Source of the DNA: Escherichia phage vB_Eco_Lzu_P1
Direction: 5' to 3' (one strand)
Length of the DNA: 44,712 bases
Sequence record: PQ295795
In this document: piece after piece, positions 1 through 44,712 of the stretch
Position numbering within the stretch: the stretch's first letter is position 1
How the letters are laid out: each line of letters starts with the position of its first letter
Translations under genes and position numbers: made by a program
The notes under the pieces: generated by a model
Databases searched by the model: none
Seen by the model: only the letters and a program-made list of their open reading frames with translations
Told to the model about the DNA's origin: nothing

Positions 1-127
1 AATGCAAACAGCCAGATTAACGCGGTCCAGGTGGTATCAGATACGTCTCCTGTTTGCAACAGTCCGATAATACAGACCATTGCCGTTAACAGATACAGCA
101 CCCGGCCGAAAATGCCATCCCGGACGG
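1..127. repeat. Terminal overlap, copy 1 (identical to 44586..44712)
   Basis: Direct reading: bases 1-127 equal 44586-44712 base for base; a minus-strand ORF runs through it without a stop. Confidence 0.9.
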
Positions 128-194
128 ACGGCGCATACACGTTAAACAGGGACGAAGCCCCGATGATAACAAACAACAGGACGGAGATAATCAT
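1..194 (-). CDS. Small holin/antiholin-like membrane protein, N-terminal part (ORF runs off window start; completed at 44534..44585 in the other copy)
   Basis: ATG at 194 overlaps the stop of the 191..481 gene (ATGA coupling). Translation MIISVLLFVIIGASSLFNVYAP...LLTAMVCIIGLL has 2-3 hydrophobic helices and no stop before position 1. About 81 aa when joined across the junction. Confidence 0.5.
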   Translation of the reverse strand, partial: MIISVLLFVIIGASSLFNVYAPSVRDGIFGRVLYLLTAMVCIIGLLQTGDVSDTTWTALIWLFA

Positions 195-481
195 TTTGCA
201 CCCCCCGGAAGTCGGAACGACGCAATAGTCTCCCTGATCCGGTCGGCGATTGGCATCCAGAAAATTGCGGTTACGAAGCCCAAACCGGCGACAGTGCGCT
301 CACCCGACAAACCAGCCCACTCGGCGATAGCCGGTGCGCCAAATATGGCACACAGGAAGCCAACTACGACATACAAAACGAAGTTTAGCGGCCCCTTCGT
401 AGCCTCACCATGAATGCGTGCGCCTACGAAGCCACCCGCCAGACATGCCAGGGCGAATAGCCACTCGTTTAGCTTATCCAT
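191..481 (-). CDS. Holin-like membrane protein (96 aa, about 3 TM helices)
   Basis: ORF track; three hydrophobic segments (WLFALACLAGGFVGA, LNFVLYVVVGFLCAIFGAPAIA, VAGLGFVTAIFWMPIA) with a charged C-terminus; sits directly upstream of a second membrane protein and the endolysin in the circular map. Confidence 0.55.
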   Translation of the reverse strand: MDKLNEWLFALACLAGGFVGARIHGEATKGPLNFVLYVVVGFLCAIFGAPAIAEWAGLSGERTVAGLGFVTAIFWMPIADRIRETIASFRLPGGAK

Positions 482-487
482 AAAAAA

Positions 488-516
488 GTCCCAGTAAGTT
501 TTATCTCACTGGGACT
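488..516 (-). terminator. Intrinsic terminator (minus strand) immediately upstream of the holin gene
   Basis: Minus strand reads AGTCCCAGT-gagataaaactt-ACTGGGACT followed by TTTTTT then the holin ATG; 9-bp perfect stem. Confidence 0.55.
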
Positions 517-533
517 ATATCACGCTTGCATAA

Positions 534-821
534 TTAATCGAAAACGGACCACTTGCCGACGCCTTTCCACTCCCACCCGGATGAGCGGACGGCTTCGAAT
601 GTTCGACCGCCTATCATATCCCGATACCACAGCCACCACATGCGCAACCTGGTCGGGTGCTCCGTGATTCCACGGCGCTTGTAGATCTCGAACGTCATGC
701 GGGTAATGCTGGCTGCTTCCACGGCGGGCCATACCAAGAATACCCATATTGCGCCCAGCACTCCCGTAACCAGGCATAACATGCTGGCCATACCAAACCA
801 ATAAATCACATCGTGTAACAT
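534..821 (-). CDS. Small membrane protein (start chosen at internal ATG with AAGGGG RBS; ORF extends to 860)
   Basis: ORF track 534..860; hydrophobic helix IYWFGMASMLCLVTGVLGAIWVFLVWPAV; the overlapping alternative-frame ORF 520..864 is arginine-rich and less protein-like. Confidence 0.45.
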   Translation of the reverse strand: MLHDVIYWFGMASMLCLVTGVLGAIWVFLVWPAVEAASITRMTFEIYKRRGITEHPTRLRMWWLWYRDMIGGRTFEAVRSSGWEWKGVGKWSVFD

Positions 822-942
822 CGAATTGCCCCTTCCGGTTTGCCAATATGGCGCGCCCATGCACGCGCCACGAAGTAATTGCGAAATACCCGACCGCCTA
901 TCTCGAAGCGGTTATGCTGAAGCATATCACGGATCGTCGCAC

Positions 943-2626: not shown

Positions 2627-2646
2627 GTTCCGCCCTCCTATTGGTG

Positions 2647-2690
2647 TGCAACCAATATAGCAGGGTGCTGGGGTGGATGCAACCAATATT
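2647..2690 (-). promoter_or_regulatory. Sigma70-like promoter (minus strand) built from two direct copies of the ATATTGGTTGCA motif
   Basis: Minus strand: TTGCAT - 17 nt - TATATT, second motif copy ending about 20 nt before the RBS of the 2626 gene. Confidence 0.5.
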
Positions 2691-2841: not shown

Positions 2842-3012
2842 CAGTCTCAGACGAGGGGGGCCATTGACCCCCGTCTAGTCTGAAAGACTGGGCTTTGTCC
2901 CGCCTGTCCCGCTCCCCTCCAGGCCGCGTCATCTGTGGGCGGGACGGGGTGCTGTCCCGCTTTGTCCCGCCTCCTGTTTGTCCCGCTTTTTGTCCCGCTT
3001 ACTTTATGCAGT
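2842..3012. repeat. Non-coding hairpin plus GTCCCGC iteron element, copy A
   Basis: 2842-2911 identical to 30662-30731 (70 bp); imperfect hairpin AGACGAGGGGGG-ccattga-CCCCCGTCT; at least six direct TGTCCCGC units plus one inverted; ends with TTTATGCAG as in copy B. Confidence 0.85.
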
Positions 3013-5379: not shown

Positions 5380-5709
5380 TTACTTCGAAGTTTTATTATT
5401 GCGTACCCAGGAGCGCACGGTGCTCTGATTAATTCCTGTCAACTCAGCGATCATTGCCCAGGATTTGCCCTCGGCGCGCAAACGGATAACCTGTTTTTTG
5501 TATTCTTCCATTTCGTCATTGTGCTTTTGCAGCTTGCTTGCTGCCGTGCCGTTGAGTAATTCCAGCTTCGCGGTAAGCTCCTTCTCAGCACGCGATAATC
5601 TGGACACTTCAAATAACAGAGTATCCACCGCATTTGTGTAATACCAGGATTTACCCGCTTCGCCGCGGATTGCATTAGATAACACTTCAATTGCTTCTTT
5701 GATATTCAT
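5380..5709 (-). CDS. Helix-turn-helix DNA-binding protein (putative transcription regulator)
   Basis: C-terminal GKSWAMIAELTGINQSTVRSWVRN is a classic HTH; first gene of the minus-strand block next to the divergent promoter region. Confidence 0.55.
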   Translation of the reverse strand: MNIKEAIEVLSNAIRGEAGKSWYYTNAVDTLLFEVSRLSRAEKELTAKLELLNGTAASKLQKHNDEMEEYKKQVIRLRAEGKSWAMIAELTGINQSTVRSWVRNNKTSK

Positions 5710-18589: not shown

Positions 18590-18620
18590 AAAAGGGGCCG
18601 TATGGCCCCTTTTCTCATTT
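18588..18620. terminator. Bidirectional intrinsic terminator between convergent blocks
   Basis: AAAAAA-GGGGCC-gtat-GGCCCC-TTTTCTCATTT; A-tract on one side, T-tract on the other. Confidence 0.65.
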
Positions 18621-21708: not shown

Positions 21709-21736
21709 AAAGGGGCCGGATGGCCCCTTCTCCTTT
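21707..21736. terminator. Bidirectional intrinsic terminator
   Basis: AAAAA-GGGGCC-ggat-GGCCCC-TTCTCCTTT; same stem as terminators at 18594, 31675 and 37365. Confidence 0.6.
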
Positions 21737-30661: not shown

Positions 30662-30975
30662 CAGTCTCAGACGAGGGGGGCCATTGACCCCCGTCTAGTC
30701 TGAAAGACTGGGCTTTGTCCCGCCTGTCCCGATCGGCTAAAACCCACGGCAGCACTGACGGGGACAGGGGTGCTGTCCCGCTTTGTCCCGCCTCATTCTG
30801 TCCCGCTTTCTGTCCCGTTTGTTTTATGCAGAAAAACCGCATAGCTATTCACTTTTAAGGGGCGGGACAGATCGGGACATCACCCCGTCCCGCTTTTAGT
30901 TTATGCAATGAAAGTGAGTATATATGCTGTTTAATGGTGGCGGGACAAAACGGGACGTCCCGCCTGTCCCGCTTC
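30662..30975. repeat. Non-coding hairpin plus GTCCCGC iteron element, copy B, with extra iteron cluster
   Basis: 30662-30731 identical to 2842-2911; about nine direct and several inverted (G)TCCCGC units; inserted between the GT chaperone stop and the tape-measure start. Confidence 0.85.
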
Positions 30976-37360: not shown

Positions 37361-37392
37361 AAAAGGGGCCATTACGGCCCCTTAATTATTTG
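37361..37392. terminator. Bidirectional intrinsic terminator
   Basis: AAAA-GGGGCC-attac-GGCCCC-TTAATTATTT; overlaps the last codons of the o-spanin gene. Confidence 0.6.
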
Positions 37393-41810: not shown

Positions 41811-42361
41811 TATTCACCCTGGCCTTTGCCGGAAGGTTCGACAACGACGTCGCCGTTATCATCTTCGTCGTCATCCAGAGGCACATCGTCGCGGACGCCG
41901 TGGTTTGCTTTAAGCAGGAATGTTGCGAAGCCCGCCGCGATGGTCACGCCGCCAGCTTCCATCAGGAAGGTTTTTTGTAACTCCATAGCGTCAGCCATCG
42001 CCTCAGCGAACTCCTCATGCGCACGCGCCCAGCGATACAGGCAAGCTACGCCCACGCCGATTTCCGCGGCAAATCGACCGAAGGTTGGCATTTTGTTGCG
42101 GGGGATTACTTGCGCCGCGCCTTTATCGGAGTAGTTTACCTGCCAGGCGTCGGCGTCGGCAAAATAGCGGCGAAGCTGGTCGCAGTAAACTGTGCGGTAG
42201 TCGGTCGGGCGCCCACATTTGCCGCCTTTACGGCGTTTGCCGTACTCGATTTCCGGTCCGAGATTGGTATGTTCTGTTTGCTCGCCTGGTTTACGGCGCG
42301 GGGTTACTGCCACTCGTCCGTCCAGTTTGGCGCGTCGGCCCTTAACTTTGATTTCTGCCAT
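41810..42361 (-). CDS. Terminase small subunit (putative)
   Basis: 183-aa basic N-terminus and acidic C-terminus, immediately upstream of terL with overlapping stop/start; ATG 42361 with AAAGGG RBS. Confidence 0.5.
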   Translation of the reverse strand: MAEIKVKGRRAKLDGRVAVTPRRKPGEQTEHTNLGPEIEYGKRRKGGKCGRPTDYRTVYCDQLRRYFADADAWQVNYSDKGAAQVIPRNKMPTFGRFAAEIGVGVACLYRWARAHEEFAEAMADAMELQKTFLMEAGGVTIAAGFATFLLKANHGVRDDVPLDDDEDDNGDVVVEPSGKGQGE

Positions 42362-42491
42362 GATATAAGCCCTTTTGTTCATATGCGCCGACCATCGGCA
42401 ACATAGGAGACGGCCCTGCCATCTAACGGGGATTATAACAGGCACAAAAAAGCCCACCAAATCGGCAGGCTGGGAGGGGTACGGGTTGCCG

Positions 42492-43796: not shown

Positions 43797-43830
43797 ATTG
43801 GTTGCAGTATGGCGTCTATGTTGGTTGCAA
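43797..43830 (+). promoter_or_regulatory. Pair of ATTGGTTGCA motifs (regulatory site; promoter orientation ambiguous)
   Basis: Motif at 43797-43806 and 43821-43830; plus-strand TTGATT - 17 nt - TATGTT, minus-strand TTGACT - 18 nt - CATACT. Confidence 0.35.
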
Positions 43831-43848
43831 GTCAAGCAATAAAAAGCC

Positions 43849-43873
43849 CGGTATTATCCGGGCTTGATTGTTT
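43849..43873 (-). terminator. Intrinsic terminator ending the lysis operon
   Basis: Minus strand AAGCCCGG-ataata-CCGGGCTT followed by TTTATTG. Confidence 0.65.
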
Positions 43874-44039
43874 ACGCTGCGGGGCCGGGTTCTTCCGGCG
43901 GTGGCGGGCTTGGCAGCTTCGCGTCAAAGACGCCTGCATGGCTGATAGTGTCCGCGATGATAGCGCGTGCGCCAGGGTCTTCGGTTTTAGCCAGCGCGGC
44001 GAGCGCGTCAGCGTTATGATCAAGAATACTTTTTAACAT
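43872..44039 (-). CDS. Hypothetical small protein (55 aa) downstream of endolysin
   Basis: ATG 44039 with GAGGTGA RBS 6 nt upstream; MLKSILDHNADALAALAKTEDPGARAIIADTISHAGVFDAKLPSPPPPEEPGPAA; below track threshold. Confidence 0.45.
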   Translation of the reverse strand: MLKSILDHNADALAALAKTEDPGARAIIADTISHAGVFDAKLPSPPPPEEPGPAA

Positions 44040-44055: not shown

Positions 44056-44547
44056 TTATGCAGCGTTACGTCCGATTCGCTCGGCAACGTCCCACTGCTT
44101 GCCATCAAACAACGCCTGTCTGCCGATTGCACGGCGTACCAGACCCTTCAGCACTTCCCCGCCTTGCTTGCGGAACTGCGGCAGAGTAGCACGGACCTTC
44201 GCCCAGTCCCCCAGTCGCACCGCATCGTCGAAATCATTCGCGACGTCATCCGGTACGATAGGACCAGGACCGGCGTTGATTACCAGGTCCACCAGCGCGT
44301 CGAATTGCGCCTGGTTAATGCTCTTATGAGCGTATTTGTTCACCCAGTCCTCAGCATACGCCACATCGCGCTTGAGCAGTGCCAGCGCTTCCTCGCGGGT
44401 AATGCTTCGAGGCGGATTAGTGCCAGTATGACCATAACCCCAGGTGTACAGGCCGCGGGCCTGCTCTTTCTTGGTCGCGAAATACGGCACCGGGCTGAAA
44501 GCCTCCCATGCTGCCGTAAATCTTAGACCGTTGTCACTGAATCGCAT
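44056..44547 (-). CDS. Endolysin (GH24 T4-type lysozyme)
   Basis: N-terminal catalytic region FTAAWEAF ... LYTWGYGHTG matches Glu/Asp/Thr lysozyme core; 163 aa; preceded by two holin-like genes. Confidence 0.8.
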   Translation of the reverse strand: MRFSDNGLRFTAAWEAFSPVPYFATKKEQARGLYTWGYGHTGTNPPRSITREEALALLKRDVAYAEDWVNKYAHKSINQAQFDALVDLVINAGPGPIVPDDVANDFDDAVRLGDWAKVRATLPQFRKQGGEVLKGLVRRAIGRQALFDGKQWDVAERIGRNAA

Positions 44548-44712
44548 GTTTTACCCCATTCAAAACAGCATTACGCAGTGTGCGCAATGCAAACAGCCAG
44601 ATTAACGCGGTCCAGGTGGTATCAGATACGTCTCCTGTTTGCAACAGTCCGATAATACAGACCATTGCCGTTAACAGATACAGCACCCGGCCGAAAATGC
44701 CATCCCGGACGG
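44534..44712 (-). CDS. Small holin/antiholin-like membrane protein, C-terminal part (5' end beyond window; same gene as 1..194)
   Basis: Continuation of the ORF starting at 194 through the repeated end; stop TGA at 44534-44536 overlaps the endolysin start by 14 nt. Confidence 0.5.
   Translation of the reverse strand, partial: VRDGIFGRVLYLLTAMVCIIGLLQTGDVSDTTWTALIWLFALRTLRNAVLNGVKHAIQ
44586..44712. repeat. Terminal overlap, copy 2 (identical to 1..127)
   Basis: Direct reading. Confidence 0.9.

Follow-up and report, generated by a model that had tools for sequence, protein, structure and literature searches.

In phage lambda, late control consists of a constitutive promoter (pR'), a terminator (tR') and Q antitermination, with S-R-Rz and the structural genes coming after. 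Phage T4 places a late promoter inside the 5' strand of a hairpin that occludes the ribosome-binding site (RBS) at genes e, soc, 49 and I-TevI (McPheeters et al. 1986, reviewed in PMC3014915), the sdi stem-loop of lambda S sets the ratio of two in-frame starts, Met1-Lys2-Met3 (PMC3359269), and P23-45 gp39 is an example of a small phage antiterminator without recognisable homology (PMC3351154). These are the systems with which a hairpin at 487..516 on the minus strand of Escherichia phage vB_Eco_Lzu_P1 (PQ295795; the whole 44,712-nucleotide (nt) stretch analysed is referred to as the window) is compared here, the hairpin being located directly ahead of the gene for holin 1 (191..481, minus strand) and its lysis cassette. 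Holin expression sets the time of host killing, and the phages concerned (Dhillonvirus, to which the window belongs, and also Kagunavirus and Jerseyvirus) are common in E. coli/Salmonella phage-therapy collections, with their transcription being essentially unstudied.

The reading favoured here, to which we would grant an even chance of being correct, takes the 52-nt co-oriented gap that separates the upstream small-gene operon from the lysis cassette to be a compact transcription and translation insulator with an embedded promoter, i.e., a T4-e-like switch that doubles as a terminator. The anatomy of the hairpin, its conservation, the change of stem between lineages with a hairpin nevertheless being retained, and the folding energetics are established, and it is from these that we infer promoter activity, termination and a translational block in vivo.

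The hairpin, its energetics and its conservation

Read along the minus strand from 524 to 479, the region is CG TGATATAGTCCCAGTGAG ATAAAA CTTACTGGGACT TTTTT ATG. The 5' arm (516..505, AGTCCCAGTGAG) and the 3' arm (498..487, CTTACTGGGACT) enclose a 6-nt loop (504..499, ATAAAA) and form, at -19.3 kcal/mol, a stem of 12 pairs holding six G-C pairs, namely nine outer Watson-Crick pairs (AGTCCCAGT/ACTGGGACT) followed by G·U, A-U and G-C. A T6 run (the U-tract of the RNA; 487..482, minus strand), the first T of which is able to pair with A516, abuts the holin start codon, and the gap between the stem and the ATG is 5-6 nt. The sequence-only reading of this stretch had seen a strong terminator-like structure directly ahead of the lysis cassette, which proved to be real and conserved and stands at the end of the small-gene operon, on the minus strand, a strand that reading did not name; its T6 is borne out, and its gap of about 7 nt was too wide.

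A stem and loop, a U-tract and the end of a co-oriented gene make up the anatomy of an intrinsic terminator, and the hairpin would be expected to act as one; a terminator scan does call the site. The 61-nt hairpin region folds at -24.1 kcal/mol (z = -6.5), with none of 200 shuffles being as good, and in a genome-wide scan the hairpin, at its -19.3 kcal/mol, ranks first among the hairpins with a strict T-run, the runner-up (-17.2 kcal/mol) being located after the capsid gene. Sites combining a hairpin with a T-run at -12 kcal/mol or below number 17 in the genome versus 0-7 in 12 dinucleotide shuffles; as one of these 12 shuffled genomes held such a site of -19.7 kcal/mol somewhere, energy alone is not decisive, and it is location and conservation that decide. 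Other identities of the hairpin were considered and rejected. A bidirectional terminator would have to work on the plus strand, where the hairpin is followed by ATATCACG, without a U-run, and where there is no gene nearby. Typical RNase III substrates are longer than 12 bp, so the stem is too short for a site of this enzyme, and the sole match to a known RNA family, NsiR1, is sub-threshold (28.1 bits versus a gathering score of 39) and arises from the hairpin-plus-U-run shape.

AGGAGG is absent ahead of holin 1, which bears out the earlier description of the gene as lacking an obvious Shine-Dalgarno (SD) sequence, but a weak SD-like GGGA within UGGGAC (489..492, minus strand) occurs within the 3' arm, hidden there 7 nt ahead of the ATG. 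Pairing of UGGGA (-12..-8) with the anti-SD amounts to -3.9 kcal/mol, compared with a genome median of -5.9, and, judged by the relative Bas83, the SD strength of the holin is the 20th weakest of 71 annotated starts, i.e., the SD is weak, yet neither absent nor exceptional. The leaderless holin message that had also been proposed is excluded: TGGGAC, the hexamer occupying -12..-7 relative to the ATG, does not resemble a -10, and the stem ends just those 5-6 nt ahead of the ATG. A mini open reading frame (ORF), ATG-CAA-GCG-TGA (531..520), was considered as a coupling device and rejected: an SD is lacking, and one variant (L091) no longer has the ATG.

Homologous holin genes were found by tblastn and pattern scans in five lineages, i.e., Dhillonvirus, an Ioannina-type branch, Kagunavirus, Jerseyvirus (the SE2 group, group A) and a fifth group (L155-L159, group B), and four different stems are present at the equivalent position ahead of them. 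The Dhillonvirus stem (AGTCCCAGTGAG/CTTACTGGGACT; weak SD UGGGA in the 3' arm, T6 and then ATG) is retained in the Ioannina-type branch (72% holin identity, with a differing holin N-terminus; weak SD GGGG in the 3' arm, T5 and then ATG) through a C insertion in the 5' arm and an A>G change in the 3' arm. The Kagunavirus stem (46% holin identity) is ATCCTCCAG/CTGGAGGAT, holds a perfect SD, GGAGGA, in its 3' arm and is followed by TCATC-TTG without a T-run; that of Jerseyvirus group A is ATCTCCGAA/TTCGGAGAT, with SD GGAG in the 3' arm and a T-run (TTTTTTATT-GTG), and that of group B is CTCCGTAT/ATACGGAG, again with SD GGAG in the 3' arm and with no T-run. The fold z-scores of the lineage regions range from -2.8 to -6.5, all better than shuffles. 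A T-run was thus counted in two of the lineages, Dhillonvirus and Jerseyvirus group A, and is absent in Kagunavirus and group B, whereas the SD lies within the 3' arm in every one of the five; as the hairpins of Kagunavirus and group B cover the SD even without a T-run, RBS occlusion, and not termination, is the conserved property.

According to the computed folds, the hairpin of a long transcript sequesters the SD and/or the start codon in all five lineages. Opening -16..+3 in a read-through RNA is calculated to cost 13.4-21.4 kcal/mol in nine representatives of the five lineages (about 20 kcal/mol for the present holin), which means that read-through or antitermination alone would yield a poorly translatable holin mRNA. 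In MED16-type phages (25% identity), by contrast, a classic terminator stands by itself and is followed by a 45-nt spacer, with the SD left free; a scan of genome contigs revealed no deeper relatives, and scans of metagenomes and IMG/VR gave the same lineages. The comparison also corrects an annotation: in Jerseyvirus SE2, a 93-aa homologue of holin 1 that starts with GTG and had been overlooked (L144:970-1251; NC_016763.1 14558-14839) lies between the HslV-family peptidase gene and the annotated holin, behind the equivalent hairpin, so that the 360-nt “gap” in RefSeq is a missed gene.

Within genera, the region hardly varies. The 52-nt gap is almost the same in all Dhillonvirus loci collected (GenBank, IMG/VR and metagenomes), with changes confined to the positions just past the stop codon, the loop and the length of the T-run, which occurs as T5, T6, T7 or AT6 and never falls below five T. 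In the 24 unique Dhillonvirus sequences, diversity (pi) is 0.021 in the gap versus 0.185 at third-codon positions of the holin, and in the 58 unique sequences of Kagunavirus it is 0.021 in the 52 nt ahead of the start versus 0.330 at those positions, i.e., 9-15 times below synonymous sites. The stretch from the stop codon to the stem, CGTGATAT, is invariant or near-invariant too and as conserved as the stem itself; the whole gap, CGTGATAT included, thus being under selection, a bare terminator is insufficient as an explanation. The stem variants seen in Kagunavirus are one A-U to G·U change and two lengthened stems, besides a mismatch discussed below, and L062 has a G·U-compatible change, which fits RNA pairing and not DNA pairing. 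Covariation within genera was uninformative in a region this invariant, and the evidence therefore had to come from comparisons between genera.

An extended -10-like element over the 5' arm

An extended -10-like element, TGATATAGT (514..522, minus strand; TG at 522-521 and hexamer TATAGT at 519-514), overlaps the hairpin, its last 3 nt being the first 3 nt of the 5' arm. It is invariant in 11 of 11 Dhillonvirus variants, and the pattern TG-n-TA-nnn-T-CC overlaps the 5' arm in all five lineages, taking the form of TGATATAGT in Dhillonvirus, TG(C/G)TATCCT in Kagunavirus, TG(T/C)TAATCT in Jerseyvirus group A and TG(A/C)TAA(T/C)CT in group B. MAFFT put this pattern in register unaided, with T, G, T, A, T, C and C invariant, and nothing beyond it is conserved across lineages upstream of the hairpin, where the flanks are unalignable. 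The “n” of TG-n-TA is polymorphic in three lineages (C/G, T/C and A/C) and its neighbouring bases never change, all of which fits the extended -10 consensus TGnTATAAT, including the critical T-12, A-11 and T-7 and the free “n”. The end of the hexamer is 32-40 nt away from the start codon across lineages.

Motif, position and conservation argue for TGATATAGT being an embedded promoter. Transcription would be predicted to start at G507 or A506 (minus strand), 7-8 nt past the hexamer and inside the 5' arm; the resulting RNA would carry a leader of 25-26 nt lacking 9-10 of the 12 nt of the 5' arm, with which the stem cannot form. Placed 7 nt past the hexamer, the start would land in the distal 5' arm or the loop across lineages, and the computed cost of opening -16..+3 in such an RNA is 4.0-7.8 kcal/mol in all nine representatives. 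The sequence-only reading had named a promoter mapped between hairpin and holin as a finding that would speak against it, and the putative promoter TGATATAGT comes close to this, albeit lying over the 5' arm.

The switch, as we picture it, would operate as follows. A polymerase coming from upstream would transcribe both arms, and the 12-bp stem with its U6 would, judging by anatomy, end most transcripts at about 485-482; in whichever RNA reads through, the stem is calculated to bury UGGGA and to abut the AUG, and the holin would remain untranslated. A -35-independent promoter of the sigma-70 extended -10 type at TGATATAGT would instead start RNA at about G507/A506, and this RNA, devoid of most of the 5' arm, would undergo neither termination nor RBS occlusion and would have a U/A-rich unstructured leader, with holin 2 and endolysin then presumably translated by overlapping-gene coupling.

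The distribution of the motif elsewhere lends this some credence. In the window, TGNTATANT occurs at five sites, all on the minus strand, four of which precede gene starts: 2662-2654 (small-gene operon), 522-514 (holin), 43676-43668 (exonuclease) and 42440-42432 (terminase). In Bas83, a Dhillonvirus relative with an independent annotation and 4.4% non-coding sequence, three of the four TGNTATANT sites precede genes of the same orientation (holin, exonuclease and terminase), at distances of 33, 34 and 71 nt, versus a baseline of 7.1% for composition-matched permuted motifs (binomial P = 0.0014; 6 of 1500 control motifs perform equally well). “CGTGnTAT”, considered as a promoter motif specific to the phage, has 3 sites versus 1.27 expected, which is not significant, and was discarded.

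A considerable number of points nonetheless weigh against an embedded promoter. The -35 region is poor (3/6 at best), and a consensus promoter scan called no promoter at the hairpin. The final T, the CC and 2-5 nt of the hexamer lie inside the stem, where pairing constrains those positions anyway, and the minimum-free-energy fold of Dhillonvirus adds a weak outer helix, CGUGA/UUAUG, that could also conserve the “TG” (the Jerseyvirus outer helix uses other bases). Jerseyvirus also has a TATAAA 5 nt further upstream, a start from which would include the whole hairpin. In Kagunavirus Bas73, extended -10 motifs show no positional enrichment, the holin site standing alone there, and TGNTANNNT is not enriched genome-wide (63 sites versus 55.6 expected), some of its 8 “upstream” sites in Bas83 also including the stop or start codon of a neighbouring gene. 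The gain in accessibility is small for Kagunavirus when the wider window of -14..+13 is considered (merely 8.9 versus 6.9 kcal/mol), and the stem of one Kagunavirus variant (L107) includes an A·C mismatch. The literature on Dhillonvirus, Kagunavirus, Jerseyvirus and HK578 yielded no transcript maps or transcript 5'/3' ends, the sole Kagunavirus transcriptome paper found being of gene-level resolution.

The alternative that survives best, possible if on balance doubtful, is that the hairpin is a plain terminator and that the lysis genes, having no promoter of their own, are expressed by read-through or late antitermination, with the weak structured RBS keeping holin synthesis low and thereby setting the lysis time. 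The terminator anatomy is indeed strong, with at least five T in every Dhillonvirus variant and a T-run in Jerseyvirus group A as well, TGATATAGT has no -35 element, and most of the small upstream proteins are without an assigned function. The sequence-only reading had suggested such a timing device and a search for an antiterminator among the small early proteins: a bearing of the structure on lysis-gene control is indeed probable, but read-through or antitermination alone leaves the RBS locked at about 20 kcal/mol, and Pfam/PHROG scans of 13 ORFs around the cassette recognised no protein of the Q or N families. Given the example of P23-45 gp39, such a negative homology search is weak evidence, novel antiterminators being possible. 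Further points against a plain terminator are the Kagunavirus and group B hairpins, in which the lack of a T-run speaks against termination as the conserved function, as well as the TG-n-TA that five lineages keep unchanged upstream of the stem and the near-invariance of the stop-to-stem stretch, both of which a plain terminator leaves unexplained; other minus-strand modules, moreover, show a terminator followed by a promoter-like site.

Less probable still, and in our opinion unlikely, is an RBS lock without any internal promoter, i.e., a translational operator on a long polycistronic mRNA that is opened late by other means, be it a helicase or RNA-binding protein of the phage, cleavage by an endonuclease within UGnUA or between the arms, temperature, or ribosome standby on the U-tract; the conserved TGnTA would then be a protein-binding or RNase site. 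Such a lock would agree with RBS occlusion being kept in all five lineages, with the conserved UGnUA being A/U-rich and single-stranded in the folds, and with there being no genome-wide sign of extended -10 promoter use in Kagunavirus. On the other hand, the U-tract of Dhillonvirus and Jerseyvirus group A should stop most long transcripts ahead of the holin, a cut upstream of the 5' arm would leave the RBS closed, the letters and spacing of the element (TG, a free base, TA, three bases, T) closely match the extended -10 consensus, and the same motif heads two other Dhillonvirus operons. As for a chance or purely DNA-level palindrome without a role in expression, the shuffled genome with a hairpin and T-run of equal energy is outweighed by the exact placement in a 52-nt co-oriented intergenic gap, the 9-15-fold lower diversity than at synonymous sites, the stems kept via compensatory change across genera, the G·U-compatible change in L062 and the plus-strand reading without a T-run, and this explanation is effectively refuted by the conservation data.

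Gene order and similar sites elsewhere in the genome

The window is a complete genome of an HK578-like Dhillonvirus coliphage (87-93% identity to HK578-like Dhillonvirus coliphages by megablast over the first 3 kb). Its positions 1-127 and 44586-44712 are an exact 127-nt repeat of the two ends, a k-mer overlap indicating a circular assembly with a true genome size of about 44,585 bp, in which holin 2 crosses the junction. The genes flanking the hairpin are all on the minus strand, in the order of a helix-turn-helix (HTH) protein, helicase-primase, the small-gene cluster and the hairpin, and then holin 1, holin 2, endolysin, a 55-aa ORF, a terminator, exonuclease, terminase and structural genes. 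The last gene of the upstream operon encodes a membrane protein (534..821, minus strand; PHROG 2531) and likely starts at ATG 821 with SD AAGGGG ahead; the longest ORF is 534..860 (108 aa), and the PHROG 2531 match starts at its residue 14. The stop codon TAA of this gene (536..534) is 17 nt ahead of the hairpin stem.

The product of 191..481 is, by its family match (PHROG 2359 “holin”, E = 8.5e-32) and as a small membrane protein encoded beside an endolysin, a holin of 96 aa; its ATG at 481..479 is the sole start retaining the first transmembrane segment (N-terminus MDKLNEW..., next Met at residue 76). The ATG of holin 2 (81 aa in total) at 194 overlaps the holin-1 stop (ATGA), and the gene runs over the assembly junction (1..194 for its 5' part and 44534..44712 for its 3' part, minus strand), ending with TGA at 44536..44534. 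The endolysin (Phage_lysozyme; 44056..44547, minus strand) has its ATG overlapping the end of holin 2, and as holin 2 and endolysin each overlap the end of the preceding gene, translational coupling of both is suggested. The final gene of the cassette is the 55-aa ORF (43872..44039, minus strand; PHROG 11068, SD GAGGTG). A further hairpin, GCATTGCGCACACTGCGTAATGC (-13 kcal/mol; 44545-44567, minus strand), lies within the final part of the holin 2 gene, some 20 nt ahead of the endolysin ATG, the translation of which it might modulate. Rz-like spanin genes are annotated among the head genes of Bas83 (L142 4759-4989) and Bas73 (L143 5509-6004), far from the holin-endolysin cassette, so lysis functions are split over two transcription units.

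The small-gene operon ending at the hairpin is headed by a promoter-like site, TTGCAT-N14-TGCTATATT (2654..2682, minus strand), and its first gene starts at ATG 2626 with SD AGGAGG. The lysis cassette is closed by a terminator-like hairpin, AGCCCGG-ATAATA-CCGGGCT with T5 (43841..43864, minus strand), directly after which comes a promoter-like site, TTGACT-N18-CATACT (43835..43806, minus strand). A terminator-like hairpin with T6 likewise follows the exonuclease gene (42446-42472, minus strand), and 5 nt past it lies a perfect extended -10, TGTTATAAT (42432-42440, minus strand), 71 nt ahead of the terminase small-subunit ATG at 42361, the TTG that would serve as its -35 being inside the 3' arm of that terminator; the longest-ORF start of the small subunit at 42460 is probably wrong. 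The terminator-then-promoter junctions at 43864-43806 and 42472-42432 suggest re-initiation at each module rather than antitermination.

A second case of a -10 over a 5' arm is found at 2636-2659 (minus strand), where a small hairpin, ATTGGT-TGCAC-ACCAAT, overlaps in its 5' arm with a -10-like TATATT and extends up to the SD (AGGAGG) of the gene that begins at 2626; that arm is a copy of the 9-mer ATTGGTTGC (GCAACCAAT on the other strand). This 9-mer has 13 exact sites versus 0.5 expected, at 1939(+), 2648(-), 2679(-), 2769(+), 3050(-), 5899(-), 12445(+), 15402(+), 15419(+), 17075(-), 20455(+), 36562(+) and 43797(+), often paired 10-30 nt apart and in or beside promoter-like sites, with none near the holin hairpin; a phage regulator that binds DNA probably uses it as its operator. 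Bidirectional terminator hairpins of nearly identical sequence, AAGGGGCC(N4-5)GGCCCCTT with a T-run on each strand, occur three times, at 18593-18610, 21711-21728 and 37364-37382, two of them at convergent gene ends and one within the head-gene region. Clusters of GCGGGACA/GGCGGGAC repeats and inverted repeats, at 2890-3000 (minus strand, in the non-coding sequence after helicase-primase) and at 30860-30975, are probably equivalent to the repeats that the annotation of Sodalis phage SO-1 calls “region B” and could be an origin or a protein-binding array. A 109-aa protein (5380-5709, minus strand), a “transposase” in relatives, has HTH_23 and Sigma70_r4_2 matches (28.8 bits, cut-off 25.7) and is a candidate regulator of transcription whose gene comes first in the leftward early transcript.

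It is tempting to think bigger, and, speculative and rather improbable as the idea is, the late program of Dhillonviruses, and partly of Guernseyvirinae, may depend on host RNA polymerase acting at -35-independent extended -10 promoters, with the holin gated by a promoter-in-hairpin switch that would at the same time be the strongest terminator of the genome. Were this true, a small phage factor would shift the polymerase away from -35/-10 early promoters (e.g., TTGACA-N17-TAGTTT at about 5775) and might also modulate termination like P23-45 gp39 does, the 13 copies of ATTGGTTGC would be the operator of a second regulator, and lysis timing would be set transcriptionally, by the firing of the 52-nt element.

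Comparison with described systems

If the favoured reading of an insulator with an embedded promoter is true, a single 52-nt element closes one operon, keeps whatever leaks through from being translated and launches the lysis operon, which would be a very compact insulator for a toxic gene and would extend the T4 gene e principle to unrelated siphoviruses with host-type promoters; the element would also be a handle for engineering lysis time.

The likeness to P23-45 gp39 is that Dhillonvirus late-strand genes are preceded by a -35-poor TGnTAnnnT and interspersed with intrinsic terminators; no gp39 homologue or other RNA polymerase-binding factor was identified here, however, and the enrichment of the motif is modest in Dhillonvirus (P about 0.001-0.01) and absent in Kagunavirus. 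Lambda Q/tR' resembles the present locus in having a terminator ahead of a lysis cassette that precedes packaging and structural genes on the same strand, but no Q-like protein was found in the Pfam/PHROG scans, and the sole -10-like element overlaps the 5' arm, so that its transcript would lack the hairpin and no 6S-like short RNA is expected. More terminator-promoter pairs follow the cassette here, unlike a single long antiterminated operon. With lambda S and its sdi, the locus shares an RNA stem-loop at the 5' end of a holin gene that influences translation initiation (a prediction in the present case), whereas holin 1 has a single start and a separate second holin gene comes next.

Compared with a canonical intrinsic terminator, the hairpin has the expected anatomy, i.e., a G+C-containing 12-bp stem, a 6-nt loop and U6, 17 nt past a co-oriented stop, yet it differs in that the U-tract runs into a start codon, the 3' arm holds the SD-like sequence of the next gene, conservation is no lower 5' of the stem than in it, and two related lineages do without the U-tract.

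The T4 gene e family seems to be the closest parallel, although the differences are several. T4 uses gp55-dependent late promoters (TATAAATA), whereas the element here resembles an extended -10 of the host sigma-70; nothing like a late sigma factor was recognised, the closest being the HTH/Sigma70_r4_2-like match in the 109-aa protein (5380..5709). In T4 it is the endolysin that is controlled, while here the holin heads a holin-holin-endolysin cassette; the hairpin of Dhillonvirus and Jerseyvirus group A has a U-tract and should terminate as well; and the present phages are unrelated siphoviruses for which the promoter is a sequence-based proposal, while the T4 transcripts have been mapped. 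What seems alike is the target, a lysis gene downstream of presumably earlier-expressed genes on the same strand: the upstream genes are co-oriented, with the promoter-like site at 2682-2654, and while the U-tract of Dhillonvirus should stop most of their transcripts, Kagunavirus and group B have no terminator between the upstream genes and the holin. Also alike is the proposed logic, in which long transcripts sequester the SD/AUG and a promoter, or here a putative one, in the DNA of the 5' strand would give rise to translatable transcripts. As the element is TGATATAGT and not the T4 late promoter TATAAATA, and as no gp55/gp33-like factor was recognised, the hairpin site would not be a homologous member of the T4 gene e family but one that works like it.

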